Notes: generated by a model from the sequence alone, not told the origin. A DNA stretch of 64,000 nucleotides from Akkermansia muciniphila (GCA_943331445.1 CALQLO010000003.1:66173-130172), one strand, 5' to 3'; positions 29,256-63,005 are shown, numbered from the stretch's first letter. Program-made: numbers and translations.

Positions 29256-30641
29256 ATGAGCTTGCCTAACTCTGATGCCTTGCGGGTGGCCGCGTTACGG
29301 CTTCCGCGACTGCCATCGATGCCGTCGGTAGCTGGGCCGATCGCGATCGCGGTCTCGGGTGGTGCGGATTCAGTCTACCTACTGTGTGCATTGTGGGCCG
29401 ATGAATCATTGCGGCCGCGCCTTCGTGTTCTCCATCTCGATCACCAGGTCCGAGGCGAAGCCTCTGCGGGAGACGCTTGTTTCGTGGACGCGCTCTGCGC
29501 CGCCCTCGGCGTGCCTTGCGTGCTGGGCTTACGCGAAGGGGCGGGGGCTGCTTCGGAGGCAGACCTGCGCTCCGCCCGCGATACTTTCTTCGCCGAACAG
29601 CGAATGGCTACCGGCTTTGAAATTCTTTGTACTGCTCACCATCTCGATGATGTCGTCGAGAATGCACTGCTGCGCCTCGCTCGCGGTGCGGGGCTGGCCG
29701 GGCTGGCTGCACCGCGGGCCTTGCAGGAGTTTCGCGACGGCCATTGCCGCTGGCGACCGCTCATCGCCGCAGGCCTCACGAAGGCCGACTTACTCTCCGC
29801 CCTCCATGCCGCCGGCCTCCCTTGGCGCGAGGATGCAACGAACATTTTGCCCATCGCGGCCCGCAATCGTATCCGCACCTGGCTGGCCCAAGGCGGAGAG
29901 CAAGCGCTCGGGGTAGGTTATCAGGACGGCTTTGCCCGTTCTGCCCGTATCATTGGCGAAACTCAATGGGCGCTATCGCAGTGGGCGCAGGAACTCGGCT
30001 GTGTCATGGTCGATGGCGCTATGCCCGTGGCTCAGCTCCGCGGCCGCCCAGTAGCCTTAATCCAAGAATGCCTTCGCGGGTTCCTTTATGCGCAAGGCGT
30101 TGCGGATCCGAGCGGACCTTCCCTTGCGTCGCTGACGGCCGCCATGGGTGCCGGTCAAGACGCCCAGTCGGCCGTGCGGGGTTTGCTCGTGCGCGTGCAG
30201 GCCGGTTATCTCTCGGTCTTGAAGGATTCTCCTGTATTAGGACAAACTGAACGTCCGCTACGGTTGGGTGTGCCGGATGAAGAGTGCGGACTGCTAGCGG
30301 AGTTCGCGGATGTCGATGAGGCGCTGTGGGCAAGTCTGTCTCGGGGGGACATTTCGCCCACTCGGGAGGTCTATCTTGTCGCTTCACTTGGGCCGCTTGT
30401 CTGGCGGGGCCGAAGGGAGGGCGACCGCTATCAGCCTCTCGGGTCGTCCGGATCGGCCAAGCTATCCGACCATCTGATTAATCGCAAAATCCCTGTAGCC
30501 CAGCGGGAAGCGTTGCCGGTGGTCATGGCCGATGGGCAGATTCTCTGGGTGCCCGGATTGCCGCCAGCAGAATCCGCGCGTCTGGCAGGGCCGACTAAGG
30601 GGGCTCTCCGGTTGACTTGGCTTGGCCCCTGCTTAGGTTAA
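29256..30641 (+). CDS. tilS: tRNA(Ile)-lysidine synthetase
   Basis: PP-loop IAVSGGADSVYLL plus TAHHLDDVVEN; 461 aa. Confidence 0.85.
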   Translation: MSLPNSDALRVAALRLPRLPSMPSVAGPIAIAVSGGADSVYLLCALWADESLRPRLRVLHLDHQVRGEASAGDACFVDALCAALGVPCVLGLREGAGAASEADLRSARDTFFAEQRMATGFEILCTAHHLDDVVENALLRLARGAGLAGLAAPRALQEFRDGHCRWRPLIAAGLTKADLLSALHAAGLPWREDATNILPIAARNRIRTWLAQGGEQALGVGYQDGFARSARIIGETQWALSQWAQELGCVMVDGAMPVAQLRGRPVALIQECLRGFLYAQGVADPSGPSLASLTAAMGAGQDAQSAVRGLLVRVQAGYLSVLKDSPVLGQTERPLRLGVPDEECGLLAEFADVDEALWASLSRGDISPTREVYLVASLGPLVWRGRREGDRYQPLGSSGSAKLSDHLINRKIPVAQREALPVVMADGQILWVPGLPPAESARLAGPTKGALRLTWLGPCLG

Positions 30642-30652
30642 AACCTCTGCCC

Positions 30653-32641
30653 ATGAGCCAAAACGATAATCAGGATAATCGCAACGGGCCGCGCATGAAC
30701 GCCAAGCCCGTGTTGGTCTGGTTGCTGCTCATGGCCGCCATCATCGCTCTTTTTAATATCCCGAACGCCGCCACGGTCGGTGCTCCCCAGAAGCTGACGG
30801 CCTCTCAAGTCCTCGCCGCTGCCAAGGAGGATAAGATTCAAAGCCTCACATTGCGCGGTGACCGCAGTGCAGGTGAGGGCTGGGTGCATCTGTCAGGGGA
30901 GCTCAAGGTTGCGGGGGCCAAGCCCGGGGATAACAACAAGTTTACCGCTGAAGGCTCCCTTACTCCGGCGGATCGCGACCTCTTGCGTGCCCGGATTCCG
31001 ACGGATTCTTTTAAGGACGTCGCTGAACAGACCGGCTGGTCCATGTTCCTTTACAGCACGCTGCCGACGTTGCTCGTCTCCGGCATCGTGTTGTTCATGA
31101 TGTACCGCTTTCTGAAGAATGCGAACCGGGGTGCGATGCAGTTCGCCAAGTCCCGGGCGCGTCTCAATGCCAACGAAAAGGAAGCCACCACTTTTAAGGA
31201 CGTCGCTGGCTGTGATGAGGCGAAGGAAGAGGTGAAGGAGATTGTCGACTTCCTGAAGGATCCGAAGCGTTTTACGCGCATCGGCGCCAGCATCCCGAAG
31301 GGCGTGCTCATGGTCGGGCCTCCTGGTACTGGCAAGACGTTGCTCGCCCGCGCGGTCGCCGGCGAAGCAGGGGTGCCGTTCCTGAGCATCAGCGGCTCGG
31401 ATTTCGTCGAGATGTTTGTGGGAGTCGGCGCCGCCCGCGTACGCGACACCTTTGAGCAGGCCCGCAAAATGGCACCTTGCATTATCTTTATCGACGAGAT
31501 CGATGCGGTTGGCCGCCAGCGCGGTGCCGGCGTCGGCGGTGGTAATGATGAGCGTGAGCAGACGTTGAACTCCTTGCTGGTTGAGATGGATGGCTTTGAT
31601 GGCCAGGCTGGCGTGATCGTGATCGGGGCGACCAATCGCGCCGACGTGCTGGATGCCGCCCTGTTGCGGCCGGGTCGCTTCGATCGCCAGGTGTTTGTCG
31701 ACCTTCCTGACTTGCGCGGACGCGAAGCGGTTCTTGCCGTCCACGCCAAGCGGTTCCAGTTGGCCCCCTCAGTGGATTTACAACGAGTCGCGCGTATCAC
31801 GACCGGCATGTCCGGCGCGGACCTCGCGAATCTTTTGAATGAAGGGGCGCTGCATGCGGGTCGCCGTAATCGCGAAAAAGTCGAGATGTCGGACATCGAA
31901 GAGGCTCGCGACAAAATCGCCTATGGCCGCGAGCGCAAGAAGGTCATGGATGATTCTGACCTTAAGAACACTGCTTACCATGAAGCTGGCCACGCCGTCG
32001 TGCAGGCCCTGATTGATGATGGCGCTTTGCCTTTGCATAAGGTCACCATCATCCCTCGTGGCCGCGCTCTCGGGATGGCGATGCTCATGCCCACCAAGGA
32101 AATCTTGGGTTACACCCGCAAGCGACTACTCGACTACATCTGCATGGCCATGGCTGGTCGGGTCGGCGAGAAAGTCGTCTCCGGAGAAATTTCCAACGGT
32201 GCTTCGAGCGACATCAAGCAGGCTACCCGTTTCGCTCGTCAGATGGTGTGCGACTGGGGGATGAGCGACCTCGGACCCATCGCCTTCGGCGAAAACTCCG
32301 ACACGGTTTTCCTCGGCCGCGAAATTTCGCGCACCCAGAATCACAGTGACGAGACCGCCCGCCGGATTGACGAGGCCATTTCCTCCATCGTGAAGGAGCA
32401 GTATGCCCGCGCCGAGAAACTCATCGCTGACAACGCCGATGCCCATCGCAAGATCGCCGAAGCCCTCTTGGAGTTCGAGACCCTGGATGGCGTGCATGTC
32501 ATGGAAATTCTTAAGACTGGAGCTATCCAGACGCCTATCGTCGCGGCGCCTGAGGTGGTCGCCCCCGCCGCCACGACTTCCCCTGTCCCGACTCGGGCTG
32601 AACCCGACTCGGGGATGCAGTCGGCTCCTAGCCCCGCTTGA
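30653..32641 (+). CDS. ftsH: ATP-dependent zinc metalloprotease FtsH
   Basis: [20 protein letters not shown], and zinc site HEAGHAV, with two N-terminal TM segments. ATG at 30653. Confidence 0.95.
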
Positions 32642-32678
32642 GGTTTGCCTCGTCGGCCTAGCTAACTAGGCTCACGGC

Positions 32679-33254
32679 ATGGTCATCGGACTCACTGGCG
32701 GGATAGGCTGCGGAAAGTCCGCAGCGGCCGCTTTCTTTGCCGAGTTGGGCTTTCAGGTTATTGATGCCGATAAACTTGCGAGGCAGGTCCTCGAGTCCCC
32801 GGCCTGCGTCGCCCAGCTTCAGGCTCACTGGGGTCGCGACTGTCTTGATTCAGTCGGCCTGCCTAATCGCGCTTGGATAGCCGCCAAGGTTTTCGCTGAG
32901 CCTGCTGAGCTCGCGTTTCTGGAGGGGCTGACTCACCCTGAGGTGGCCCGGCAGCGCCAAAACCTCATTGCCCAGCACAATGGCGATACGGTCGTTGAGA
33001 TCCCGTTGCTTTTTGAGAAGAATTTAGGCGCTGAGTTTTCGACTGTCGTTTGCGTGGCAAGTTCTGACGCCATTCGACGGGAGCGGTTACGCCTTCGTGG
33101 TCTTTCGGAGGTGCAAATTACCGCGAGGATTAATTCACAAATACCTATTGAGCAGAAGGTTAAGGGCTCAGACTTTGTGATTTGGAACGATGGAGAGCTT
33201 TCTTTTCTTCGGCAGCAGGTCGGGCGATTGGTAACCCAGTTGCGCGGTCGATGA
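32679..33254 (+). CDS. coaE: Dephospho-CoA kinase
   Basis: MVIGLTGGIGCGKS P-loop; 191 aa. Confidence 0.85.
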   Translation: MVIGLTGGIGCGKSAAAAFFAELGFQVIDADKLARQVLESPACVAQLQAHWGRDCLDSVGLPNRAWIAAKVFAEPAELAFLEGLTHPEVARQRQNLIAQHNGDTVVEIPLLFEKNLGAEFSTVVCVASSDAIRRERLRLRGLSEVQITARINSQIPIEQKVKGSDFVIWNDGELSFLRQQVGRLVTQLRGR

Positions 33255-33382
33255 AATCGGTAGGTTTTCGCTTAATTTGCGGTTGCGGGTAAGGTTCCCT
33301 GATTTAGGTTATTTTACCCCGCCGTTCCTCTCCAAGAGGCCCTGCATTTCTACCCCCATCTTCCGCTCCGGACTTCCCTACT

Positions 33383-35101
33383 GTGACGACCGCCGACGAC
33401 TACGTCATTCAATTCATTCAGGACAAGGGGCTCGTGTCCCCTGCCGACGTGACGCAGGCCAGGGCTGACCTTGGCGCCATTCCGGAAGGGCAGAACCCTG
33501 ACACCTTGGCTTTGGCTAAGCTGGTGGAGACCGGCAAGGTGGCGTGGGCTAAAATCACTGAGGCGCTCAGCAAGGAATTCGATATGGAGCTGGTGGATCT
33601 TTCACAGATCGCCCCGGCCGAGGATGTGCTCAAACTGATTAGTCGCGACCAAGCCGAGCGTCATAATATCCTGCCGCTGCAGATGGACGGCGTCGAACTG
33701 GTCGTCGCTATTTCCGACCCCCTCGACACTGAGACGATCGACTCGATTTCCCGGATGCTGAAGGTGGCCCTGAATCCGAAGCTGGCCCCGCCCGAGGAGC
33801 TTAAGGCGGCAATCTCTCGCTGCTATAACGGCGGCCAGATGAGCGTGTCCTACGATGATATTTTAGGTAAGTCCGAAGAGGGCGGTTTATCGGTAGAGCT
33901 CCCGCAGGGTGGCGACGTCAAGGAGGACGACGCTCCCATCATCCGCTATGTCAACTCGCTCATCGTTGACGCCATTCGCCGCAAGGCTTCCGATATTCAC
34001 CTCGAGCCCCTAGAGAAACGCTTCCGCGTGCGCTTCCGTATCGACGGCGTCTTGCAGGAAATGAAGGGCCCACCTAAGCGCCTGCAGGCTTCCGTGATTT
34101 CCCGCCTCAAGTTGATGGCGGAAGTTTCGCTCGCCGAGAAACGCATCCCGCAGGACGGCCGTATTCAAGCCCGCACGGGCGGCCGCGACATTGACTTGCG
34201 CGTCTCCGTGCTGCCCACGGTTTATGGCGAATCCATCGTCATGCGAATTCTCGACAAGGAGGGCCTTAAGCTCGGCCTGCCGGAGTTGGGCTTCTTCGCT
34301 GACGACCAAGCTAAGTTCCAAGGGCTGATTTCGGGTTCAGACGGGGTTTTCCTGGTCACCGGCCCGACGGGTTCGGGCAAGTCCACCACCCTGTATTCCG
34401 CGCTTAACTACATCAATAAGCCGGACCGAAAAATCATCACGGTCGAAGACCCGGTCGAATACCAGATGGCCGGCATCAATCAGGTGCAGGTGAAGCGCGA
34501 TGTCGGTATGACCTTCGCCGCCGCCCTTCGCGCAATGCTTCGTCAGGCGCCCAACATCGTGATGATTGGGGAAATTCGAGATCTTGAGACCGCGGAAATC
34601 GCCATCAATGCGGCGCTCACCGGCCACATGGTTTTCTCCACGCTGCACACCAACGATTCCGTCAGTGCGGTCACCCGACTCGTTGATATCGGGGTTAAGC
34701 CGTTCCTCGTTTCCGCCGCGCTCCGCGGGGCGTTGGCCCAACGACTCGTCCGCCGCATTTGCCAGTCCTGTGCGCAGCCCTACAAGCCCAATGCGAAGGA
34801 ACTCTATTCCATCGGCATGTCCGAGCAGGACATGGCCGGAGCGACCCCCATGAAAGGTGCCGGTTGCGTCAAGTGCGGCGAGCGTGGCTACAAGGGACGC
34901 CGTGGTGTCTTTGAGATGTTCGTCATCACCGAGGAAATCCAGGAGATGATTTACAGCGGCGCAAATCTCGTCGACCTACGACGCAAGGCGCGCGAAGCCG
35001 GCATGCGCACGATGCGCGAAGACGGCCAGCGCAAGGTGGCCTCGGGCATGACCACCATCGAGGAGGTCATGGGTGCCACCGTGGCTGACGACATTATCTA
35101 A
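33383..35101 (+). CDS. pilB: Type IV pilus / type II secretion assembly ATPase (GspE/PilB family), copy 1
   Basis: It has a GspE-N-like N-terminal domain and Walker [11 protein letters not shown]. The Asp/His boxes include [13 protein letters not shown]. The tetracysteine is CQSC...[15 protein letters not shown] start. Confidence 0.85.
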
Positions 35102-35106
35102 TATCG

Positions 35107-36180
35107 ATGGCCTACGAGATGAATCAGTTGCTGGAGGCGATGACCGAGAACGGTGCTTCCGATCTGCATATTCATGTGGGCCGCTCTCCCTGTCTGCGGG
35201 TCAATGGCATCGTCGTCTCTGTGGATGGTCCCGCGCTGACCGAAGCCGAAGTCGAGCGTCTGGTCAGATCGGTGGTGCCCGTTGCTCAGCTCCCGCGTCT
35301 CGAGAAGGACGGCGGGTGCGATTTCGCTTTTTCCTTTCGTGATAAATGCCGCTTGCGCGTGAATGCCTTCCGCGGCCACGGAGCCTACGGCATGGTTCTG
35401 CGTCTCCTGCCTTCGGCAATGTTCACGCTCGAGCAGCTGCGACTCCCCTCCGTCATCAAAGATTTGCTGCGGCGAGCTCGCGGTTTGGTGCTGGTCACTG
35501 GGCCGACCGGCTCCGGGAAATCCACCACCCTCGCTTCGATGATCAACTGGATCAACGAGAACGAGCAGGGCCACATCATCACCATCGAAGACCCGATCGA
35601 GTATACGCACGAGCACAAGAGCTGCATGGTCACCCAACGCGAGGTTGGGGTCGATTTGCCGTCGTTTGCTGAGGGTGTTCGGGCCGCGCTTCGTCAGGAT
35701 CCAGATGTCATCTTAATCGGGGAAATGCGCGACCTTGAGACGATCGAAGCCGCGGTCACCGCCGCCGAGACGGGCCACCTTGTGCTCGCCACCCTGCATA
35801 CCTCCGGCGCCGCCCGCACCATCGATCGCATCATCGATGCTTTCCCCGCCAACGCGCGCGAACAGATTCGGGCGCAGCTTTCGACCTCGCTGACCGCCGT
35901 GATTTCGCAGTGCCTGTTGCACACCAAGGAAGACAAGCGGGTCGCCGCCTTTGAGATCATGCTGCGGACGGATGGCGTGGCCGCAAAAATTCGCGAAGGC
36001 AAGACCTACCAACTGTTGACGGATATCGAAACCGGCGGCGTGCGCGGGATGCGCACCTTGGACAGCGACCTGCTCTCGCTCTGCCATCAAGGCCTCGTTT
36101 CGGAGGACGAAATCTTTAACTACTGTCAGAATCCCGAAGCGATGCGTGACCGCATTAAAGCTGCGCCCGCTGCTCGCTAA
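35107..36180 (+). CDS. pilT: Twitching-motility retraction ATPase PilT
   Basis: 357 aa with [24 protein letters not shown] and [10 protein letters not shown], and no N-terminal GspE-N extension. Confidence 0.9.
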
Positions 36181-36206
36181 ACTTTCCCACCCCTTATTCT
36201 ATTCCC

Positions 36207-37892
36207 ATGTTTGACGACCACAGCGACCTGATCCGCGATATCGCCCTTGAGGCGGGACTCGTCTCGCCTCCCCAGGCCGAAGAAATCTGGGAGTCGCACG
36301 GCCTGACGGGCAAATCCTTCTCCGAGTCGATGATCGACGCCGGCCTGGCCGACCGTCCGACCATTCTCCAGGCGGTCGCGGATCACTTGCATGTACAGTT
36401 TTATGCCGCCGTGCCGCATGAACTCGGGGATGATTTAATCAAGCTCCTCAAGCCGGCGCAGGCGCACAAATACGTCGTGATTCCGGTTTCGGATGAGGCG
36501 GGAAAGCTCACGCTGCTCGCCAAGGACCCGTTCAACTCGGCGGCCGTCAATGAGCTGACCTTTATTCTCCAGCGTGACATCGAGTTGGCTGTCGCCGATC
36601 CGGCGTTGGTGGAGTCCGCGGTTATTCGTGTTTACGGGGAGCCTTCCTCTTCCTCGATGGAAGATCTGTTGGGTGAATTCGATCAAGTTGAAGGCGGCGT
36701 CCCGGTTACGGATGAGGACGTCGTCAATCAGGCCAGCCAGGCTCCGATTATTCGCTTCGTCGACCTCGTGCTGCAAGAAGGGGTCAAAGCCAAGGCTTCC
36801 GATATTCACTTCGAGCCGTTCGAGCATGAGTTCCGTATCCGCCTGCGCATCGACGGCTCTTTGTATGAAATGGCGCCGCCACCCAAGAATCTCGCGTCGG
36901 CGGTCATCGCCCGCGTCAAGGTGCTCTCTTCGCTGAATATCGCCGAACGGCGCGTACCCCAGGATGGTCGTATCAAGACCACCATCAGTGGACGCGCTAT
37001 CGATTTACGCGTCTCGACGCTGCCGACCCAGTTTGGCGAGTCCGTCGTGCTCCGTATCTTGGACAAGACCGTCGTCAACCTGAGCCTCGACGCACTGTCG
37101 ATGCAGGATGACATCAAGGAAGGCATCCGGGCGATGGTCAGCCGGCCGAACGGAATCTTCATTGTCACCGGCCCGACGGGTTCCGGTAAGACGACCACGC
37201 TTTATTCCGCGCTCCGTGAAGTGAATACCGAGGACATGAAAATCCTCACGGCCGAAGACCCGGTCGAATACGAAGTTGAAGGCATCATGCAGGTTCCGAT
37301 TAACCATCAGGTCGGGCTCACCTTTGCGGCCGCGCTCCGTTCGTTCCTTCGCCAAGACCCTGACACAATCATGGTTGGTGAAATCCGTGACCTTGAGACC
37401 GCCCAGATTGCCGTGCAGGCCTCGCTGACTGGCCACGTCGTGCTCTCGACGCTTCACACCAACGACGCCCCGGGTGCCGTGACCCGTCTGATTGATATGG
37501 GACTCGAGCCCTTCCTGATCTCCGCTTCGCTCGAAGGGATCCTCGCCCAACGTCTGCTCCGCCGCATTTGTAAGTCCTGCCGCACCGCCTACGAGCCGGA
37601 TAAGGACGTCATCAACATGCTCGATGTGGACGCCTTGGAGATCTCCAACAAGAAGTTCTACTTCGGAAAGGGGTGTGCAGAGTGCAATCGTGCCGGGTAC
37701 CGCGGACGCCAAGGCCTCTTTGAGCTGATGTCTATTAACGACAATATCCGCACCCTTATCACGCAGAAGGCGCCGACCTTGGTGCTCAAGCAGAAGGCCA
37801 TCGAATCCGGCATGCGTCCGCTCCGCGAGGATGGTCTGCGTTGCATCTTTGACGGACTGACTACTATCGAGGAAGTCCTTAAGTACACCTAA
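36207..37892 (+). CDS. Type IV pilus / type II secretion assembly ATPase (GspE/PilB family), copy 2
   Basis: Walker [24 protein letters not shown], and tetracysteine CKSC...[12 protein letters not shown]. Its N-terminal domain differs from copy 1. Confidence 0.85.
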
Positions 37893-37912
37893 CCCCTTAC
37901 CCAGCCACCCCT

Positions 37913-39163
37913 ATGCCCGACTACAAGTACACCGCTATCGACAAAGGCGGCAACCAGACCTCCGGAACTGTCGATGCCGCCAATGATGAGCAGGCGCGCT
38001 CCAAGCTCATGGCGCGCGGCTTGATGGTCACGACATTGAATGCCAATGCCGGTGCCCCCAAGTCCGCATCCTCCGCGGCCTCTGCCCCGGCTTCCGCCCC
38101 GAGGTCGGGATTGTTCGGCGCCAAGGTTTCCTCCGATGACGTCACCCTGATGACGCGTCAGCTCGCGACGCTGATTATCGCAGGTTTGCCGTTGTTGCGG
38201 GCGCTGGAACTAATCACCAAGCAGGAACGCAATCCAGCCTTCGCCCGCGTCCTCGCCAATGTCGCTGATAGCGTCTCGCAGGGCAATAACCTCTCCGAGG
38301 CTCTGCAGGCCCATCCGAAGGTCTTCGACCGTCTCTTTGTCAACATGGTCCGTGCCGGCGAGGCGGGCGGCGTGCTTGATAAGGTTCTCGATCGTCTGGC
38401 CAAATTCCGGGAAAAGGCCGCTCGCATCCAGAAGAAGGTCAAGTCGGCCATGGTGTATCCTGGCGTCGTCATGTCGGTCGCCATCGTTATCGTCTACATC
38501 CTGATGGTGAAGGTTGTCCCGTCTTTCCAGAAGTTACTGGATGGCCAGAAGACCCAGATGCCGCCGTTAACCCAGTTCGTTGTGGGCATCTCCAAGGCCC
38601 TCACGGTTTACTGGTGGGCTACGCCAGTCATCATCGTTGGGATCGTCGTCGGATTGAAGCAGGTTCTGTCGAGCGAGAAGGGCAAGGAAGTCTTTGATAA
38701 GATCATCTTAAAAGTACCGAAGGTCGGTGCTTTCGTAACGGTCGTCACCGTCTCCCGCTTCGCGCGTACCTTCGGTACCTTGATGGCTTCCGGGGTGCCG
38801 ATTCTCCAGGCGATCACGATCACCCGCGACACCCTCGATAACGCCGTCATCGCGAAAGCGTTGGAGAAAGTGCATGACCGAGTTCGCGATGGCGAAGCGC
38901 TTTCTGTGCCACTCGAGCAATCGAAGTTATTCCCGCAGATGGTCACCTCGATGATTCAGGTCGGCGAAGAAACGGGTCAGCTGCCCGAGATGCTTAACCG
39001 CGTTGCGGACATCTATGACGAAGACGTTGATAACGCCGTGACCGCGCTCACTTCGATCATCGAGCCTATCCTCATCGTGTTCCTCGCCGTGGTGGTCGGC
39101 ACGATCGTTCTCGCGATGTTCCTGCCGCTCATCGCGCTCATCACGAAGATGACCGGGGGCTAA
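37913..39163 (+). CDS. pilC: Type IV pilus platform protein (GspF/PilC family)
   Basis: 416 aa with two T2SSF repeats (FTRQLATLIIAGLPL... and FARTFGTLMASGVPI...) and three TM segments. Confidence 0.85.
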   Translation: MPDYKYTAIDKGGNQTSGTVDAANDEQARSKLMARGLMVTTLNANAGAPKSASSAASAPASAPRSGLFGAKVSSDDVTLMTRQLATLIIAGLPLLRALELITKQERNPAFARVLANVADSVSQGNNLSEALQAHPKVFDRLFVNMVRAGEAGGVLDKVLDRLAKFREKAARIQKKVKSAMVYPGVVMSVAIVIVYILMVKVVPSFQKLLDGQKTQMPPLTQFVVGISKALTVYWWATPVIIVGIVVGLKQVLSSEKGKEVFDKIILKVPKVGAFVTVVTVSRFARTFGTLMASGVPILQAITITRDTLDNAVIAKALEKVHDRVRDGEALSVPLEQSKLFPQMVTSMIQVGEETGQLPEMLNRVADIYDEDVDNAVTALTSIIEPILIVFLAVVVGTIVLAMFLPLIALITKMTGG

Positions 39164-39181: not shown

Positions 39182-39219
39182 AAGAAGCCCGGTCCAAGTG
39201 GATCGGGCTTCTTTGTTTT
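39182..39219 (+). terminator. Rho-independent terminator after pilC
   Basis: AAGAAGCCCG-(12-nt loop)-CGGGCTTCTT followed by tgtttt. Confidence 0.75.
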
Positions 39220-39246: not shown

Positions 39247-39285
39247 AGGCGGCTTGCATACCCCTATGCAAGCCGCCTGTTTTTT
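39247..39285. terminator. Second strong hairpin; likely terminator of the convergent tRNA-Met transcript, or a back-up for the pil operon
   Basis: aaaa-AGGCGGCTTGCATA-cccc-TATGCAAGCCGCCT-gtttttt: a 14-bp stem with an A-run and a T-run on both sides. Confidence 0.7.
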
Positions 39286-39428: not shown

Positions 39429-39506
39429 TGGGTGCAGGGGTAGGATTTGAACCTACGACCTTCAGGTTATGAGCCTGACGAGCTAACCGGGCTGCTCCAC
39501 CCTGCA
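39429..39506 (-). tRNA. tRNA-Met (anticodon CAT), initiator (fMet) type
   Basis: The reverse complement reads TGCAGGGTGGAGCAGCCCGGTTAGCTCGTCAGGCTCATAACCTGAAGGTCGTAGGTTCAAATCCTACCCCTGCACCCA. The D arm, anticodon loop and T arm are nearly identical to the E. coli tRNA-fMet layout, including the A11:U24 pair. Confidence 0.85.
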
Positions 39507-39634: not shown

Positions 39635-39658
39635 ATGTCAGAACCCCCTAAGCGATGA
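39635..39658 (+). CDS. 7-codon upstream ORF (MSEPPKR) whose TGA overlaps the ATG of the next gene
   Basis: GGGAG lies 6 nt upstream of the ATG at 39635. The codons are atg tca gaa ccc cct aag cga tga, and the ATGA overlap falls on the 39655 start. Confidence 0.3.
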   Translation: MSEPPKR

Positions 39659-41229
39659 GCGAAGAACTTCCTGCGAACCCTCCTGGAGAGACTGCACAGT
39701 CAGCCCCTCAACAGGTTGAATCAGCCTCGCTTGGTTCCAAGCGCATGAAGCTCCCATTTTGGAAGCGTATCGGTGGCGGGGGTCTTACGGTGTCGCTCGC
39801 TATTCACGCGGTGCTTATCTTTATTGCGGCAGCTTTTGTCGTCTCGACGGTTACGGACAATGCCAAGAAGGATCCTAACACTTTTGCGACCGGTGCCGGC
39901 GGCGGTTCCGGGGGCGAGCGCGTGAAGAGTACGCAGCACAAGATTCAGCCCAAGAACGTTAAGTCGCTGGCCAAGACGACGACCCGCATTACTTCCAAGA
40001 GCGCTTCGGCATCAATCGCTTTACCGGACATTCCCAATTCTGCATCTGCCTCTTCCATGGTTGCGGGTGCGATGGCTGGCGGTGCTTCCAAGGGCTTCGG
40101 CGGCGGTGCCGGCGGCGGCATCGGTGCTGGCAAGGGGATGGGTTCCGGCGGCGGGAAAAACTTCGTCGCGAAGCCCGTCCTTGGGGCGAACATCTTTGCC
40201 CAACGGTTAGCGGTTTATTTCGACGCTTCCGCGTCGATGCTGCCCTATCTCGACAAGGTTGAGGCCGAGATCCGCGATAAATTCCCTGATGCGGACGTCT
40301 TCCTTGGCAATGGGGTGTTCATCGACATCCATGATACCGAGGTTGTCGGCGGCGATAAATTCAAGGGTACCCCGTTTCTGAATCGACCTCAGGGTGGCGG
40401 TAAGAAAAAGACCGCTAAGGGTGAAATCGTTGAGACAGATACTAACCCGGCCAAGCTCACCAGCGCGGGCCGCAATATCCTCAAGAAATACGGGCAGAAC
40501 TTTAAAGTCGGTTCCGCCGGGGCTTGGATTGACGTCCTCAAAGATGAGCGTGCTTACGACGCCTTGATTATTTTCTCTGACTTTCAGGACGGCGTCCGTC
40601 AGGTTCGCACCAAGGGTTACAAGCCCGACAAGGGGATGCGCCCGGACCCACCCGTTGTTTTTACGGACCGTAATGATGCGGGCTCTGGCGGTTTCAAGTC
40701 CGCCACGATTATTCCTACGGGCGGCTCCGCAGGCCAGCCGGTCGTGATGACTAAAGACACCACTGGATTGGCCGTGGGCATGTTGGCCGTGGGTTCAGGG
40801 ATTCCGCTCAATACGACCATCACGGAAATTAAGCCGAACGTGAGTTTCACTTTGGATAAGCCGCTGAAGGGTAACCCTACCGGTAAGATTTCGTGCAACA
40901 ACGGCGGTGACAAGCGTAACCCCGAAGAGAAGAAATGGGAAGAAGAGTGGCTGAAGGCTTTCGCCGCGGCGAAGGACAATAAAGGACCTCGTCTTTATCT
41001 GCTATCCATTCAGCAACAGCCCCGTGGCGTGCTCGCAGCGTGCGTTGAGGCTTCTGGCGGTCAGGCTAAACTCATCACGGGCCTCCGCACGCTTGAGGCT
41101 GCACCTCTCGCTGGCGTTAAGCCTCCAGTGGCTGGTGCTCCAGCGGCGGCCACCCCACCTGCTGCGGGAGATACCAGTGCCGCGATCAAGGGCGTCACGA
41201 CCAAGGCCGCAGCCAAGCCGGTTCGCTGA
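39655..41229 (+). CDS. Membrane-anchored Gly-rich protein with a vWA/MIDAS-like core (hypothetical), paralogue 1
   Basis: It has a basic N-terminus and one TM (GLTVSLAIHAVLIFIAAAFVV) containing S-x3-H. A Gly-rich linker follows. The core blocks are RLAVYFDASASM and ALIIFSDFQDG. The tail is Pro/Ala-rich. It shares conserved blocks with 41362..42438. Confidence 0.6.
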   Translation: MSEELPANPPGETAQSAPQQVESASLGSKRMKLPFWKRIGGGGLTVSLAIHAVLIFIAAAFVVSTVTDNAKKDPNTFATGAGGGSGGERVKSTQHKIQPKNVKSLAKTTTRITSKSASASIALPDIPNSASASSMVAGAMAGGASKGFGGGAGGGIGAGKGMGSGGGKNFVAKPVLGANIFAQRLAVYFDASASMLPYLDKVEAEIRDKFPDADVFLGNGVFIDIHDTEVVGGDKFKGTPFLNRPQGGGKKKTAKGEIVETDTNPAKLTSAGRNILKKYGQNFKVGSAGAWIDVLKDERAYDALIIFSDFQDGVRQVRTKGYKPDKGMRPDPPVVFTDRNDAGSGGFKSATIIPTGGSAGQPVVMTKDTTGLAVGMLAVGSGIPLNTTITEIKPNVSFTLDKPLKGNPTGKISCNNGGDKRNPEEKKWEEEWLKAFAAAKDNKGPRLYLLSIQQQPRGVLAACVEASGGQAKLITGLRTLEAAPLAGVKPPVAGAPAAATPPAAGDTSAAIKGVTTKAAAKPVR

Positions 41230-41361
41230 GTCAGGCCTAGGCCTAACTCCAGCCATCGCCGGAACTGAAAGGTTTCCCTGCGGTTAATACTGGGTTGCCC
41301 AATGGGTGATGCCTGGGCTTGGGCGTGTTTGATATTCGGAGAGGTGTCCTAGAATGGTCGG

Positions 41362-42438
41362 ATGGAATCCCGTGACTCTGTACGTCCACGCTCGCGTGCG
41401 CGCTCCCTCGCCGGATTGGCTTTTTCCATCGCGGTACACGTGGTATTGGTGATGGCAGCCTGCTGGATTGTGTGGCGGCAGGCAGGCCCGGAGCAACGTG
41501 CGCAGGAGTTTGTCGCCCATGCGGTGGCGGGCGGACGCAGTGGTGCGTCGGCAGCTACCGTGGTTCATCCGGTGAGCCATCCGAAGGTCAGGATGCCGCA
41601 AGCACGCCTGGCGACGAAGTCTGCCAGTGCCACGCTTGCACTGCCGCCGATGTCTGCGCCGAAGCTCGGGGCCGCCATGGGCGCGGCGACGGGCCGAGGC
41701 GGGGTTTTCGGAAGAGGTATCGGTCGGGGTGCGGGCGGCGGTCTAGGCGCTGGCCTGGGTAAGTCCGCTGGCTTCGTGGGCCGACCGGTGATGGGCGCCT
41801 TCATCCGGGCCAAGCGCGTCGCGGTCTACCTGGATTGCTCGGGTTCGATGCGCTCGTATCTGCCGCGTGTCGAGGCCGAGATCCGGAAGGAGTTTCCGGA
41901 CGCAGACGTATTCCGGTTTGACGGTGCCCGGGTCGTCGGCTTGGGCGACACGGTCGTTTTTGGCCGACGGTTTCAAGGCGTCGCGCCTCGCCTGCGCGAG
42001 GGTCCGACGCAGACCACGCTCGAGTCGTTGACGCCAAACGGTCGCTCGGTGCAGGCCAAGGTCCGGACAGCCTGCGAGAAGGGCTCGCTGGGAGCGTGGA
42101 TGGATCGGCTATTGGCGGAATCCTATGACGCGCTAGTGGTCTTCTCTGATTTTCAGGATGGCGTTAGGCTCTATGAAACTAAGAAAGGCGAACCGAAGAT
42201 GGTCTATTCGGATAGTTCCTATCATAAGATCGGTGGCGTCCAGAAAGGACACACCCGTTGGCAGCGGGAGTGGCTGGAGGCCTTCGCCAAGGCCCCGCAC
42301 GGGGCCGGCCCGCGGCTTTATCTCTTTACCGTCCAGCAGGAGCCGCAGGTTTTCCTGCAGGCTTGCGTGGCGGCCTCCGGCGGTGCCTCGACCTCGGTAT
42401 CCTGGCTGAAGAAAGGCGGACGCAAGGCGTCGCCTTGA
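41362..42438 (+). CDS. Membrane-anchored Gly-rich protein with a vWA/MIDAS-like core (hypothetical), paralogue 2
   Basis: It has an Arg-rich N-terminus and a TM (GLAFSIAVHVVLVMAACW) containing S-x3-H. A Gly-rich linker follows. The core carries canonical RVAVYLDCSGSM and ALVVFSDFQDG. Confidence 0.6.
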   Translation: MESRDSVRPRSRARSLAGLAFSIAVHVVLVMAACWIVWRQAGPEQRAQEFVAHAVAGGRSGASAATVVHPVSHPKVRMPQARLATKSASATLALPPMSAPKLGAAMGAATGRGGVFGRGIGRGAGGGLGAGLGKSAGFVGRPVMGAFIRAKRVAVYLDCSGSMRSYLPRVEAEIRKEFPDADVFRFDGARVVGLGDTVVFGRRFQGVAPRLREGPTQTTLESLTPNGRSVQAKVRTACEKGSLGAWMDRLLAESYDALVVFSDFQDGVRLYETKKGEPKMVYSDSSYHKIGGVQKGHTRWQREWLEAFAKAPHGAGPRLYLFTVQQEPQVFLQACVAASGGASTSVSWLKKGGRKASP

Positions 42439-42463: not shown

Positions 42464-42895
42464 TTGGATAGGCGCATGGCCCCTTTCACGGCAGATTACC
42501 GCGCTAATTTCTCCGACACCGACGCCGCGGGCATCGTGCATTTCTCGACGATCTTTTTCTGGGTCGAGGCCACGGAAGAGGCTCTCTTTCGCCAATTGAA
42601 GTTGCCGTTTATTCGGGCTGAAGGGGCCAAATTGACCGGCTTCCCCCGCGTGCGCGTCGAGTGCGACTTCCTTTCGCCGATTCACCGTGAAGATATCGTG
42701 GCCGTGTCGCTTACGCCGACGGAGATCGGGGACAAGAAAATCGTCTGGGGCTTCGAGGCCAAGGTGGGTGAACGCGCCGTCGCCAAGGGTGCCCTGACGA
42801 CCGTCTACGCCTGGCGCGAAGGACAGGGCCCGATGTCGGCCGCGTTGGTGCCACTTGAAATCAAGACGGCGTTGCAGCAGCACTTTGGCGTCTGA
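42464..42895 (+). CDS. Acyl-CoA thioesterase, 4HBT/YbgC-like hotdog fold
   Basis: 143 aa starting FSDTDAAGIVHFSTIFFWVEATEEALFRQL, typical of YbgC/FadM-type thioesterases (catalytic Asp in DTD). Confidence 0.75.
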   Translation: MDRRMAPFTADYRANFSDTDAAGIVHFSTIFFWVEATEEALFRQLKLPFIRAEGAKLTGFPRVRVECDFLSPIHREDIVAVSLTPTEIGDKKIVWGFEAKVGERAVAKGALTTVYAWREGQGPMSAALVPLEIKTALQQHFGV

Positions 42896-42898
42896 GCT

Positions 42899-44326
42899 AT
42901 GAACGAAGGCACTACGAAGAAGCCGTGGGTGTGGCTCGGTCTGGTCGCCGTGGGCTTTGCGTGCTTCTCCTTGCTCGGATTGCAGCCGGCATCCTTTGCC
43001 TCGCTCGTCCATCCGCAGCCTTTGCATGCCGATGAGGCGGTGCAGTGGTCTTTAGCCAAAGATCTATCGGAAGGGGTCCTTTACAGTTCCCATGAAGACC
43101 GTTTCCACGGCCCGACCTTGGCGTCGTCCCTGTTGATCTGCTCCAAGGCGTCGGGCACCGCGTTCGCGGATATGTCGGAATCCTATCTCCGTAACGTCAC
43201 CGGTTTTTATCTCGTGCTGCTTTCCTTGGCGGCCTTGGCCTTACCCGGTGTCGGTCTGATCCCGCGCGTCACCGCCTCCACGTTCTGCTTCCTCGTCGGC
43301 GGCGGTGCTCCCTTCGGGTTTTATTATGTGCAAGAGGTGCTCCTGGTGGCGGGGCTCGCCTGGGGTGTGGTGCTATGGTTGCGTTCCGAGGTCGCGGAGT
43401 GCCCTAGGCTTAAGGTTTTTTTTCGTCTGCTTTCTGGCCTGTCCTTCGGTTTTGCACTGGCCTGTAAGGTGACGGCGGCGGCTTACCTTTTATTCTTTTT
43501 TGTGGCGCTGATGCTGGCACGCAAAGCTTGGGTTGATCGTCATCTCTTGGCCTTCCTGTTCGGCTTGATGGCGTCATGGGCTTTCTTTCAAAGCGTGGCC
43601 TTCACGGATCTCCATGGCTTGACGACTTGGTGGGGTCAGCTTGCTCGGTCGCTGGGCGTAGCCAGCGGCCAGTCGGAAGACACGCTGATGGCGGTTAACT
43701 ACTGGCCTTGGATCTGGGCAGCCCTCTGGGTGGGGGAGTTTGCCCTTCAGCGTTACCTGACACAGCGACTGGTCCCCTTCCGCTCCGGGTCATTCGACTT
43801 CGCCTTAGTTTTTGTCGGCTTGATCTTCAGCTTCCATCTCCTGCTGCCTTACAAGACGCCTTGGTTGCTTTACGGCGTCATGGCTTTACCCTTGGTCCTC
43901 ATCATCCCACACCAGCTTAGTGGCGGCTGGCTGCGGGATGGCATCCTGTTGGTGGGCTTGCTCATCGGGGCTGGCTGTGCGGCCGGAGATTTTGCCTCGC
44001 ATTCGCCGACGGCCGACCTGCGGGCTTTCGAAGCGAGCACGGCTCGATTCAAGGAAGCCTACAAGGGAAAAACCTTCTTCATTGCATTAGAATTAAAGGA
44101 AGGGGGCAATTACTGGCCTCTGCCATATTACCTCCGTCGCTACCAAGTTGGCTTCGGGGACTTTCCCGCGGCCGCTCAAGCTCCCCTGCGGCTGATCCCG
44201 GTGACCGACGACAGCGAGCCAGTCGTATCCGGCTACGCGGTCTCTAAATTGACCCTCCGAGAGGGCGGGGACCGCTATTGGGTGCTGGTTGCCAAAGGCT
44301 ACGAAAGCGTTTTTATCGGGAAATAA
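42899..44326 (+). CDS. Polytopic GT-C-fold membrane protein, TIGR03663/Agl23-like (glycosyltransferase-39-like)
   Basis: It has at least 10 predicted TM helices. The first loop carries LHADEAVQW...EDRFHGPTL, which resembles the HxDEAV...FHGP signature. The C-terminal domain is soluble. Confidence 0.5.
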   Translation: MNEGTTKKPWVWLGLVAVGFACFSLLGLQPASFASLVHPQPLHADEAVQWSLAKDLSEGVLYSSHEDRFHGPTLASSLLICSKASGTAFADMSESYLRNVTGFYLVLLSLAALALPGVGLIPRVTASTFCFLVGGGAPFGFYYVQEVLLVAGLAWGVVLWLRSEVAECPRLKVFFRLLSGLSFGFALACKVTAAAYLLFFFVALMLARKAWVDRHLLAFLFGLMASWAFFQSVAFTDLHGLTTWWGQLARSLGVASGQSEDTLMAVNYWPWIWAALWVGEFALQRYLTQRLVPFRSGSFDFALVFVGLIFSFHLLLPYKTPWLLYGVMALPLVLIIPHQLSGGWLRDGILLVGLLIGAGCAAGDFASHSPTADLRAFEASTARFKEAYKGKTFFIALELKEGGNYWPLPYYLRRYQVGFGDFPAAAQAPLRLIPVTDDSEPVVSGYAVSKLTLREGGDRYWVLVAKGYESVFIGK

Positions 44327-44331
44327 CCGCC

Positions 44332-45243
44332 ATGGAAAGCACCCCAGTCATCCACAATTTCTCTCACGAGGCATTCGGCTCTCGTTTCTGGATTCGCATC
44401 GCCGCCGAAGATGCCATCTACGCTCGGAATGCATCGGAGGCGCTATTCCAGCATCTTGATGACTTAGATTTCCAGACGGACCTCCGCCATGACAGCGGAC
44501 CGGTCGCCTCAATTAATCAAATGCCCGAAGGCGCCTTGGTGGCCGCCTCGGAGCACGTCCAGGCACTCTGGAATTTCTCCCGCGATGTCCGGGCGGACAC
44601 CAGTCGGGCTTTTGATGCCACCGCGGGGGCCCTTTTCCGCTACTGGAAAGACCGTGGCGATAGGCCCTTTAATCCGGACGATGCCGCCTGGCAGCAGATT
44701 TGGACGGCCTATCAAGGTGGGGAATTCAAGCTCGAGGGATGCGAACTCTCCTGTGTCAAATTTGGTTCCTCGGTCGACTTTGGTGCCATCGTGCGCGGTT
44801 ACGCCCTCGATCGGATGGCTGAAATGCTCGAAAGCAGCTGGGGAATTCATCGGGCGCTACTCATGGCCTCCGGTAGCGTCACGCTCGCACTTGATCCTCC
44901 GGGAGATTCCGTGGGCTGGCGCATTGGCGTCGGCGCCCACGAGGAAATCAAGCTGTGTCGTTTCGCCATGGCGAGTAAGATGGCGGATCCCACACGCGCC
45001 AATATCGTAGACCCGCGGACGGGCCAGGCCGTCTCCTTGATTGGGCCGGTGCGCGCGATTGCGACTTCAGCCATTGAGGCCGAAGGCTTGGCGGCCGTGG
45101 GCTGTGTGCTTACTTCGGCGGAGAGCGAAGAATTTGTGAACCGTGGCTGCAGTCGCGGTCTCTGGATGCCGGATGGCTCTAAGTTGGGATCGGCGACCTA
45201 TTTCGATGTGACGGAGCGGCCGATATCGGACACGGTCAGTTAA
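44332..45243 (+). CDS. ApbE-like FAD:protein FMN transferase family protein (divergent, no signal peptide seen)
   Basis: HEAFGSRFWIRI corresponds to the MGT..I block and VDFGAIVRGYALDRM to the D.GAIAKGYA.D block. AIATSAIEAEGLAA lies near the C-terminus. ATG at 44332. Confidence 0.5.
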   Translation: MESTPVIHNFSHEAFGSRFWIRIAAEDAIYARNASEALFQHLDDLDFQTDLRHDSGPVASINQMPEGALVAASEHVQALWNFSRDVRADTSRAFDATAGALFRYWKDRGDRPFNPDDAAWQQIWTAYQGGEFKLEGCELSCVKFGSSVDFGAIVRGYALDRMAEMLESSWGIHRALLMASGSVTLALDPPGDSVGWRIGVGAHEEIKLCRFAMASKMADPTRANIVDPRTGQAVSLIGPVRAIATSAIEAEGLAAVGCVLTSAESEEFVNRGCSRGLWMPDGSKLGSATYFDVTERPISDTVS

Positions 45244-60188: not shown

Positions 60189-60632
60189 TTATTCCGTATC
60201 TGCGACCGCGAAGGTGACGTTCGAGATGTTCGCCTTGGCGAGGCAGTCGAGGACGTTGATGACGCGCTCATAGCGGGCGGTCTCTTCGGCCTGTACCGTA
60301 ATCAGTAGCTTGGTCTTGGACTGCTCGGCAGCTTGGCCCATTTGCTTCATCTGATTATAGAGGTTCTCGAGCAGCTTGTCACCAGGGGCGCCGACAGGGT
60401 CTTCGTTCAGGGTGATTTCGCCGCTTTCGCTCACGCCGATAGTGACCTCGTCGGGCATCTCGGTTTCCTTGGAGGTCTCAGCGTTGCCTGGCAGGGTGGT
60501 CTTGAGCTCATGCTCCACTTTCACTGCACCGGCCATCACCATGAAGAAGAGCATGATTACGAAGACCACGTCGATCATCGGGGCGATTTGGAAGCCCGGG
60601 TTGGCGTCGGCTTGTTGTTCAACTTGTTTCAT
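60189..60632 (-). CDS. exbD: Biopolymer transport protein ExbD/TolR, copy 2
   Basis: FQIAPMIDVVFVIMLFFMV TM followed by a periplasmic domain; 147 aa. Confidence 0.85.
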   Translation of the reverse strand: MKQVEQQADANPGFQIAPMIDVVFVIMLFFMVMAGAVKVEHELKTTLPGNAETSKETEMPDEVTIGVSESGEITLNEDPVGAPGDKLLENLYNQMKQMGQAAEQSKTKLLITVQAEETARYERVINVLDCLAKANISNVTFAVADTE

Positions 60633-60635
60633 GGC

Positions 60636-61076
60636 TTATTCCTCGTGATTGAGGCCAGAGAAAGCGATGTTCTCGATGCCTGCCTCGGCGCCCCACTCGA
60701 GGGCCTTGGAGATGTATTTGGCGTGGCAGTCCTTGTCGGCGCGGACCAGTAAGCGGTACTTCGGATTGTCGCCTTTGCGGGCGGCGAGTTCTTTGGCGAT
60801 GCCGTCCTTGTCGTTCATATCAAGTTCGCGGTCGTCGAGCTTGTACTTGGGCATGCCGGTTGTCTTGTCCCAGGAGATGTTAATGAGTCCAGCGGCGGCC
60901 TTGTCGTCTCGCTTCACGCCGTTGGCGGCGACAGGGAGGGAGATGTTCTTGTCGACCTTGAGCACCTGCGACGAGGTGATGGACATGAAGAAAATCAGCA
61001 GCACCAAGAGCACGTCGATCATCGGCGCGACCTGGAACTCTGGTTCCCCTTCTCCGCCTCCTCCTCCGCCTGCCAT
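60636..61076 (-). CDS. exbD: Biopolymer transport protein ExbD/TolR, copy 1
   Basis: FQVAPMIDVLLVLLIFFM with the conserved Asp in the TM; 146 aa. Confidence 0.85.
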   Translation of the reverse strand: MAGGGGGGEGEPEFQVAPMIDVLLVLLIFFMSITSSQVLKVDKNISLPVAANGVKRDDKAAAGLINISWDKTTGMPKYKLDDRELDMNDKDGIAKELAARKGDNPKYRLLVRADKDCHAKYISKALEWGAEAGIENIAFSGLNHEE

Positions 61077-61112
61077 GGCTGTTTAGTTTGTTAGGGGGTG
61101 GAAGGTGTGCGC

Positions 61113-61910: not shown

Positions 61911-61966
61911 TGGGATGATGGGGTGTTGGGTAAGTTTTAGGTCGGGTTTTGGAAAGGGGCAAGGAC

Positions 61967-63001: not shown

Positions 63002-63005
63002 ATGA

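Follow-up and report, generated by a model that had tools for sequence, protein, structure and literature searches.

TonB of Escherichia coli and its counterpart TolA carry a Ser-x3-His pair in the N-terminal transmembrane (TM) helix, at S16/H20 and S18/H22, respectively. The same pair of residues occurs in two proteins, here called P1 and P2, which are encoded in tandem in a 64,000-nucleotide stretch of Akkermansia muciniphila DNA (GCA_943331445.1, CALQLO010000003.1:66173-130172); this whole stretch is referred to below as the window, and all positions are counted from its first letter. The closest described proteins are the 'vWA force transducers' (vWA, von Willebrand factor A), a class proposed in 2025 in Mol Biol Evol, by computation only, to dock on TolQR/ExbBD-like motors (PMC12204202). 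Its members consist of a TM helix bearing the SHLS motif, a disordered linker that includes a 'motor box', and a vWA C-terminal domain, and are found in Proteobacteria, Planctomycetes, Verrucomicrobia, Bacteroidetes, and Rhodothermaeota; in AlphaFold3 models, the conserved His occupies the motor's TonB/TolA site, and the class is without a reported phenotype (PMC12204202). An operon type of the Planctomycetes-Verrucomicrobia-Chlamydiae (PVC) group, consisting of a gene for a TPR protein, one resembling tolQ, and two tolR-like genes, was reported upstream of vWA transducers (PMC12204202), and the exemplars from Tichowtungia aerotolerans (Kiritimatiellota) are two tandem paralogous transducers encoded in a locus with two TolR-like genes (PMC12204202 supplement). 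A second class, the trans-pore helix (TPH)-type vWA proteins, replaces TolR/ExbD in TolQ-like pentamers, often as heterologous pairs (PMC12204202).

P1 and P2 share the general architecture of the first class, and their parts, together with the evidence for each, are as follows.

39655-41229, + strand: P1, 524 aa (open reading frame; family profile match, E 7e-119; AlphaFold model)
39775-39864, + strand: P1 TM helix, residues 41-70 (AlphaFold helix), with S47 at nt 39793-39795 and H51 at nt 39805-39807
39985-40035, + strand: P1 linker motif, R111-ITSKSASASIALPDIP, in which R111, L123, and P124 are invariant (alignments)
40165-41082, + strand: P1 predicted vWA-like periplasmic domain, residues ~171-476 (core pLDDT, the predicted local distance difference test score, ~90; invariant columns)
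40678-40905, + strand: P1 insertion, residues 342-417 (low confidence, pLDDT <50, modelled as disordered)
41092-41226, + strand: P1 Pro/Ala-rich C-terminal tail, residues 480-524, ending in ...AAKPVR (pLDDT <50; alignment)
41362-42438, + strand: P2, 358 aa, the minimal version (open reading frame; family profile match, E 9e-90; AlphaFold model, mean pLDDT 76.7)
41407-41481, + strand: P2 TM helix, residues 16-40 (AlphaFold helix), carrying S22 and H26
41605-41652, + strand: P2 linker motif, R82-LATKSASATLALPPM; close homologues all share R82, L94, and P95, and family-wide the conservation of P95 is at least 90%
41779-42399, + strand: P2 predicted vWA-like periplasmic domain, residues 140-346 (pLDDT mostly >90)

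From the N-terminus onwards, P1 is composed of a Pro-rich, basic cytoplasmic segment, the TM helix with S47-x3-H51, a disordered Gly-rich linker, the vWA-like domain with its insertion, and the Pro/Ala tail, and P2 of a basic N-terminus, the TM helix with S22-x3-H26, a Gly-rich linker, and the vWA-like domain. A preliminary description of the locus, made from the sequence alone, had presented them as two adjacent, clearly paralogous open reading frames (ORFs) of 524 and 358 aa on the same strand; the coordinates and all of the sequence blocks quoted there were found, and BLASTP aligned the two proteins with 37% identity over 308 residues (E 5e-42), with a second block of 50% identity (E 2e-15). 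The genes are separated by 132 bp in the window. The start of P1 varies among public gene calls between M1 (524 aa) and M31 (494 aa; region 39655-39747), and the longer form is favoured because the Pro-rich N-terminal extension is kept in the aligned orthologues. The insertion in P1, put at about 100 aa in the description, spans ~75-100 aa in the alignment (~342-417), and the Pro/Ala tail was found as described, at residues 480-524. P1-type orthologues end in a conserved [YF][KR]P[PA]R sequence (alignment A3, columns ~530-728). In the 660-aa P1 orthologues, an extra ~130-150 aa precede the tail and by eye resemble the ~75-aa insertion inside the P1 domain.

An exhaustive search of 1.84 billion cluster representatives yielded 201 relatives at E <=1e-3, of which 46 matched at E <=1e-30, and the family comprises ~200 clusters at 50% identity, being small and well alignable. 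Nearly all relatives contain the sequence GG-x-SL-x-x-S-x3-H-x-x-L, followed by a DxSxS motif ~150 residues on. Within the 64-kb window, the family profile was matched by P1 and P2 only. Proteins of the P1/P2 type are annotated throughout public records as 'hypothetical protein', with cluster labels of Verrucomicrobiota or Opitutales. Searches of Pfam and NCBIfam with P1 and P2, at full length and with the domain only, gave no match, aside from a chance match to Mito_carr and a faint one to GltJ (E 0.34). In the PDB, a single-sequence search gave one chance match (E 4.9), and a profile search hit, for the most part, artificial Gly/Ser linkers besides further chance matches, all of which were driven by the Gly-rich linker and are uninformative; no characterized family of a different topology was matched in the Pfam, NCBIfam, and PDB sequence searches.

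The anchor of P1 and P2 is of the TonB/TolA type. The sequences S47-LAI-H51 and S22-IAV-H26 lie in the sole predicted TM helix of each protein, and basic residues precede the helix in both, as the description had noted. An N-in/C-out topology is predicted for both proteins because of the positive charges before the helix and the balanced charge behind it. Both pairs (S22/H26 in P2 and S47/H51 in P1) are invariant among 35-36 homologues (alignments A3 and A5), and H26 is at least 90% conserved among 108 representatives with ~20-57% identity (alignment A2). The TM-helix His was also present in all 71 independently fetched metagenomic relatives, in which position -4 is occupied by Ser in 64 cases and by Ala in six. 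With its flanks, the pair follows the consensus W-x-R-x-GG-x-SL-x-x-S-x3-H-x-x-L, which is TonB-like. No Asp was found in the TM helix sequence of either P1 or P2.

Some variation of the anchor was observed in the wider family. The six metagenomic relatives with Ala-x3-His in place of Ser-x3-His include those at loci L114, L125, L152, and L154, and a branch of short proteins (P0207, P0259, P0260, and P0270) appears to have Asn replacing the His, e.g. 'SVIINL'. In six further proteins (P0228, P0238, P0240, P0261, P0265, and P0267), an N-terminal W-x-R-x-GG-x-G-x-x-x-S-x3-H module is joined to a different C-terminal region without DxSxS; on this view, the anchor would be portable and its outputs exchangeable. 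When the whole representative set was scanned with Pfam, one PA14 and one GLEYA match resulted, not tied to particular members.

The Gly-rich linker noted in the preliminary description is present in both sequences. It extends over ~100 residues and contains two conserved segments; in P2, residues 46-135 were modelled as disordered (pLDDT <50, AlphaFold2). The first is the linker motif listed above, with the family consensus R-[IL]-x-[ST]-K-S-A-x-A-x-[IL]-A-L-P; the published Tichowtungia transducers carry the same motif, RMASVSQASFSLPDM, and the pattern R-x-x-S-x-S-x-x-S-x-x-LP-D is common to these exemplars and the P1/P2 family. In P1, this motif may serve as a partner-binding or motor-binding strand. 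The second segment, D-x-x-F-x-x-G-x-GGG, is conserved directly after the TM helix, and its D-x-x-F-x-x-G part aligns with residues ~55-60 of the exemplars. The published class has a short conserved 'motor/stator box' directly behind the TM helix; the monomer model of P2 shows no beta-strand in the linker. In the Gly-rich stretches proper (40075-40164 in P1 and 41689-41778 in P2), the Gly positions are nearly invariant despite an overall family identity of ~25%, with at least 90% conservation for G119 to G133 of P2. Such conservation is unexpected for a plain flexible spacer, and, as judged from the alignments, the stretch may form an ordered structure based on Gly or a surface for interactions.

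The C-terminal domain was assigned as vWA-like because of its metal ion-dependent adhesion site (MIDAS) motif, its order of strands and helices in the AlphaFold models, a chain of profile matches to Pfam-positive relatives, and weak Foldseek matches that were obtained for P2 only. The description had pointed to DxSxS together with a hydrophobic strand ending in DG as a MIDAS signature, and both motifs proved to be conserved and to lie at fitting structural positions. The DxSxS motif corresponds to D190/S192/S194 in P1 (nt 40222-40236) and to D158/S160/S162 in P2 (nt 41833-41847), and the strand 'ALhhFSDFQDG' is present in both proteins, with FSDFQDG at residues 307-313 of P1 and D263 at the end of beta4 in P2. 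In the AlphaFold2 model of P2, which was built on a 36-sequence alignment, the elements follow the order beta1-alpha1-beta2-beta3-alpha-alpha-beta4-(hairpin)-alpha-beta5-alpha-beta6, which is the vWA order minus the last helix; beta1 (153-158) ends in DxSxS, beta4 (257-261) is followed by D263, and beta5 covers residues 318-323. The core of P1 has the same three-layer alpha/beta fold in its AlphaFold model. The conservation of Ser, His, and DxSxS among orthologues, which the description had put forward as a check, was confirmed: the anchor Ser and His, the three DxSxS residues, and the beta4 Asp (S22, H26, D158, S160, S162, and D263 in P2) are invariant in 36 homologues with 34-96% identity, and these residues are kept in distant relatives. 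D158 does not vary among the 108 representatives, in which conservation is at least 90% for S160, S162, and D263. T218 and T224, the candidate MIDAS Thr residues, are nearly invariant in the close-homologue alignment.

The profile chain connects P1 and P2 to recognized vWA domains through intermediate branches of the family. Distant relatives with the same anchor exceed the Pfam thresholds (P0269 with VWA_3, 39 bits; P0210 with VWA_2, 27.6 bits), and P0221 and P0222 fall just under them. In domain-only hhalign comparisons, the Opitutales core matched the Verrucomicrobiales branch with a probability of 99.6% (E 1.5e-24, 171 columns), and the latter matched the Pfam-positive VWA group with 92.9% (E 3.7e-7, 170 columns). 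The direct comparison of the core with the Pfam-positive group gave 80.5% and was confined to beta1-alpha1, and the reversed-sequence controls gave 0.2-0.3%. Among the Foldseek matches of P2 in the PDB, vWA domains account for 17 of the top 50 (Rpn10, Sec23/24, CLCA1, ANTXR1/2, NorD, vWF A1, Ku, and p44) and for six of the top nine, and SGNH esterases are also among the top matches. From these sequence and model data, we conclude that P1 and P2 end in a compact domain that is vWA-like but divergent and whose intact MIDAS motif would bind a metal ion; the vWA-like fold anticipated in the description is supported by the AlphaFold order, the complete DxSxS...D set, and the hhalign chain.

In many relatives, a third tandem paralogue is encoded between P1 and P2 (e.g. 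L004 9091-9846, and many of the loci L003-L039), whereas the window and L001 do not contain it. This protein of 251 aa combines the same DxSxS domain with a signal peptide that can be cleaved and has neither the TM anchor nor the linker, making it a free copy in the periplasm. Because the same domain is borne by a protein with a signal peptide, the vWA-like domain of P1 and P2 is predicted to be periplasmic.

When compared with the described systems, P1 and P2 share with the vWA force transducers the Ser-x3-His N-terminal TM helix, the disordered linker, the periplasmic C-terminal domain of vWA fold, and the tandem pairing, but are set apart by the Gly-richness of the linker with its nearly invariant Gly positions. 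A family profile (A2) matched the two Tichowtungia transducers in hmmsearch with 47 and 41 bits; the matches extend from the TM helix to beta1 only (the exemplar sequences were machine-read and contain small errors). The exemplar genes are directly downstream of motor genes, whereas P1 and P2 are located 18 kb away from the candidate motor operon and their subfamily is unlinked in the sampled loci. With TonB and TolA, they have in common the bitopic N-in topology, the Ser-x3-His face, a long periplasmic spacer that is not globular, and a C-terminal output domain that is. They differ from these proteins in the spacer, which is Gly-rich and not Pro-rich or helical, in the missing Leu and Ser of SHLS, and in the output, which is a MIDAS-type vWA domain and not a beta-strand-augmentation domain; neither TonB_C (PF03544) nor TolA (PF06519) was found in P1 or P2 with Pfam and NCBIfam. 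Classical vWA/integrin I-type MIDAS domains (Pfam VWA, VWA_2, and VWA_3; among them, in bacteria, BatA/BatB with their TM anchors and CglB, an adhesin of gliding) share with P1 and P2 the DxSxS after beta1, the Asp after beta4, and the element order, but the P1/P2 domain is too divergent for Pfam VWA, compact, without the last helix, and with an extra hairpin after beta4. In the TPH-type proteins, too, a TM helix and a periplasmic vWA domain are tethered to each other; however, they possess their own TolR-like trans-pore helix with a conserved Asp, lack the Ser/His pair, and are tightly linked to tolQ, and P1 and P2 are the opposite on each count. A role of P1/P2 as a TPH-type motor subunit was rejected given the missing TM Asp and the absence of an adjacent tolQ. 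A Bat or MoxR-type vWA system was also rejected, as no MoxR-type ATPase or Bat partner genes are present nearby.

Judging from these similarities, P1 and P2 fit as further members of an already published, computationally described transducer class, and the preliminary description had reached the published hypothesis independently. Its statement that the proteins could be placed in no named family holds for the databases but not for the literature (PMC12204202). The P1/P2 subfamily is distinctive within this class in its intact MIDAS, the Gly-rich linker with invariant Gly, the lack of motor linkage, the soluble paralogue in relatives, and the Mul1B-like gene in the candidate motor operon, which contains the following genes.

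63006-63842, - strand: TPR protein, upstream gene of the candidate motor operon
61967-63001, - strand: 344-aa protein, matched below threshold by the NCBIfam 'Mul1B family putative transporter subunit' (E 7.4e-9; 35 bits, where the cut-off is 75)
61113-61970, - strand: ExbB/TolQ-like protein (Pfam MotA_ExbB, 2.7e-25)
60636-61076, - strand: first ExbD/TolR-like protein (Pfam ExbD; 2.5e-16 and 2.3e-23 for this and the next protein)
60189-60632, - strand: second, different ExbD/TolR-like protein (Pfam ExbD)

Both ExbD-like proteins contain the TM Asp ('PMIDV'), and the best NCBIfam matches of the motor proteins are tolQ and tolR, both sub-threshold. The description had reported an ExbB-ExbD-ExbD operon at 60189-61910 without an adjacent tonB; the operon and the absence of tonB stand, but the end has to be moved, as ExbB reaches 61970. 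No tonB was found beside the operon at 60189-63842, and the next gene downstream is a threonine synthase on the + strand. The presence of two ExbD-like genes and two transducers in the window matches the counts in the Tichowtungia locus. In its gene content, the operon corresponds to the type that was reported to precede vWA transducers in PVC bacteria (PMC12204202). The part at 60189-61970 is a candidate motor for P1 and P2, and the sequence of the 344-aa gene suggests, as a lead, a kinship with the Akkermansia mucin utilization locus MUL1.

The data described above show how P1 and P2 are built, the signals of their topology, that the residues of the anchor and the MIDAS are conserved, and that anchor and linker are homologous to those of the published transducers; docking to ExbBD, metal binding, force transmission, the partner, and the process are what we infer. 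In the model that we prefer, P1 and P2 would be bitopic inner-membrane proteins with a cytoplasmic N-terminus, similar to TonB and TolA but with a different output domain. With its Ser-x3-His face, the TM helix would dock from outside on a proton-driven 5:2 motor of the ExbB/TolQ type, for which the TPR/Mul1B-like/ExbB/ExbD/ExbD operon at 60189-63842 is the best candidate in the window, its two ExbDs paralleling the two transducers. The linker of ~100 residues, Gly-rich and largely disordered and with two conserved short motifs, would cross the periplasm, and the MIDAS domain could, via a divalent cation, grip an acidic residue in a partner located in the outer membrane or the periplasm. The bond between a MIDAS, its cation, and an acidic residue is load-bearing in integrins. 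Rotation of the motor or proton flux would then pull on the partner. The proposal of the description that P1 and P2 are proton motive force-coupled transducers with a metal-dependent binding output is thus supported by the fold, the conservation, and the published parallel (PMC12204202), with the coupling to a motor as its conjectural part.

Several findings weigh against this model. The candidate motor operon is 18 kb from P1 and P2 and on the opposite strand, and no ExbB or ExbD gene was detected within up to 10 kb of family genes in 71 Opitutales loci, near family genes in four Verrucomicrobiales contigs, or in 638 kb of flanks of 71 metagenomic family genes. This motor-gene screen consisted of tblastn on 70 genome loci, Pfam-annotated neighbourhoods of five contigs, and phmmer on the ORFs of 84 further loci, and covered ~140 loci with usable flanks overall, the sole queries being the ExbB and ExbD of the window, which limits its sensitivity. 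Because no sampled family gene is located near exbBD, we infer motor coupling from the anchor alone. The full S-x3-H-x6-L-x3-S motif is incomplete in both proteins, the Leu and Ser positions being A33/V37 in P2 and A58/V62 in P1. The Tichowtungia exemplars have 'LDANK' in place of DxSxS, and in their C-terminal domain, which at ~320 aa is the larger one, no sequence match to the P1/P2 domain could be detected; moreover, experiments were reported for no member of the class (PMC12204202). As for the fold, the Pfam VWA models did not match P1 or P2 as whole proteins or as isolated domains up to E 10, and Foldseek against the PDB was weak with the full-length model of P2 (best E 8e-3, TM 0.3-0.47) and uninformative with that of P1, which gave only USP and DJ-1-like folds at E >=0.5. 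Thus, of the checks proposed in the description, the Pfam search found nothing, and Foldseek gave weak support for P2 and none for P1. On balance, we consider the chances that P1 and P2 are TonB/TolA-like, motor-driven transducers with a vWA output to be about even.

The genes upstream of P1 have to be considered before the alternatives are weighed. GspE/PilB, PilT, a second GspE/PilB, and PilC are encoded on the same strand at 33383-39163, followed by two types of elements.

39182-39213 and 39247-39278, no strand assigned: two terminator-like hairpins after pilC with 14-bp stems
39429-39506, - strand: tRNA-Met, in a position that is conserved in five relatives sampled across the clade

The P1-P2 pair is regarded as a separate transcription unit because two strong terminator-like hairpins and the minus-strand tRNA-Met follow pilC. 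The order GspE-PilT-GspE-PilC-[tRNA-Met]-P1-(P)-P2, together with the genes downstream, is kept in 71 loci of Opitutales, the identity falling as low as 41%. Among these, the most divergent have opposite-strand ORFs of 427 and 496 aa inserted between the tRNA and P1; by eye they are DUF1501- and DUF1800-like, no family search having been run. The distant family genes of Verrucomicrobiales have unrelated and variable neighbours. The pil cluster itself has the look of a module, standing on its own, of ATPases and a platform protein. From FtsH (30617-32641) to the terminators behind pilC, no family-assigned pilin, PilMNOPQ, or secretin gene was seen, the gap at 32642-33382 (741 bp) lying outside the examination. 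In two of the 84 further loci, pil genes are located 0.8-2 kb upstream of a family gene, namely GspE-PilC in L114 and PilC in L083. These two loci (L114 4226-10624 and L083 7701-11026) belong to a different subfamily with ~41-44% identity to P0218, and an SDR gene intervenes in L114. This neighbourhood may be a remnant of an ancestral pil/transducer arrangement or may be due to chance.

Three other explanations were compared with a motor-driven function. The most serious of them, although we hold it to be rather unlikely, is that P1 and P2 act as periplasmic vWA scaffolds or receptors, static and tethered to the membrane, in which the MIDAS binds a ligand without any motor and the Ser/His pair serves oligomerization or another intramembrane contact. 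Such proteins would account for the finding that exbBD, tolQR, and motAB adjoin no sampled family gene; the soluble version with a signal peptide implies that the domain can work untethered, and motor-less TM-anchored vWA proteins such as BatA/BatB are common. Many bona fide tonB genes, however, are also located away from exbBD, and the anchor and linker of P1 and P2 are homologous to those of transducers encoded in motor operons. A further point against a static receptor is that the TM His is kept in 71 of 71 relatives with 20-50% identity and is accompanied by Ser in the preceding turn, which together constitute a specific TonB/TolA docking signature (PMC12204202). It is improbable, in our estimate, that P1 and P2 are accessory inner-membrane parts of the upstream type IV pilus/type II secretion-like machine, acting in alignment or adhesin handling with a vWA domain as in PilY1/TadG. 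The pil-P1-P2 order in all Opitutales loci, the pil genes near another subfamily in L114 and L083, and the general occurrence of vWA domains in pilus-associated proteins would agree with such a role, but gene order kept inside one order is weak functional evidence, and pil neighbours are missing for most distant family genes. Furthermore, the strong hairpins and the opposite-strand tRNA-Met lie between pilC and P1, as do the 427- and 496-aa ORFs in some relatives, and the proteins have neither a pilin-like N-terminus nor a family match to PilM/N/O, GspL/M, or Tad. Given the terminators, the tRNA, and the inserted genes of some relatives, a pilus operon component was set aside.

The remaining explanation concerns the domain and not the motor. 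If the C-terminal domain were a generic Rossmann-like alpha/beta domain of the hydrolase or USP type, with DxSxS arising by convergence, then the lack of a significant Foldseek match, the USP/DJ-1-like matches of P1, the SGNH esterases among the top matches of P2, and the negative Pfam VWA searches would all be expected. We consider this highly improbable, as the profile chain extends to Pfam-positive vWA domains over the whole domain with clean reversed controls, vWA domains are prominent among the best Foldseek matches of P2, and the DxSxS after beta1, the Asp after beta4, and the element order all suit a vWA domain.

A motor-driven function of P1 and P2, if correct, would mean that the work of ExbBD/TolQR-type proton motors goes beyond TonB-dependent import and Tol-Pal, with the anchor reused together with a metal-dependent 'grip'. 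The Opitutales/Verrucomicrobiales subfamily keeps the MIDAS, unlike the exemplars, and point mutants of DxSxS and Ser/His therefore have clear predicted outcomes. The Mul1B-like gene in the motor operon hints at a link to mucin/glycan uptake in Akkermansia, for which genetics is available. It is conceivable, but distinctly unlikely, that P1 and P2 are the missing force arms of a MUL1-like envelope machine (60189-63842), one per ExbD, whose MIDAS domains pull on an outer-membrane or pilus-associated partner and which, with the adjacent pil genes, power a TonB-independent capture or import of polymers (e.g. glycans) in Verrucomicrobiota; if true, this would be the first phenotype-linked role for vWA force transducers. 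A definition of the family would also improve the annotation of records currently labelled 'hypothetical protein'.

Downstream of P2, three genes follow on the same strand.

42464-42895, + strand: 4HBT thioesterase (Pfam 4HBT), 25 bp after P2
42899-44326, + strand: 475-aa protein without a family match, hydrophobic by inspection and with an 'HADEA' motif
44278-45243, + strand: ApbE

The genes downstream of P2 are spaced by <=25 bp, and the thioesterase, the 475-aa gene, and ApbE are probably co-transcribed with P2. The thioesterase is weakly YbgC-like, its best NCBIfam match being the tol-pal-associated TIGR02799 thio_ybgC (E 3e-7, below the cut-off). One extra ORF in the window, at 43824-44087, was picked up with a looser [ST]-x3-H regular expression; it overlaps the called gene at 42899-44326 in an alternative frame and is unlikely to be a real gene.

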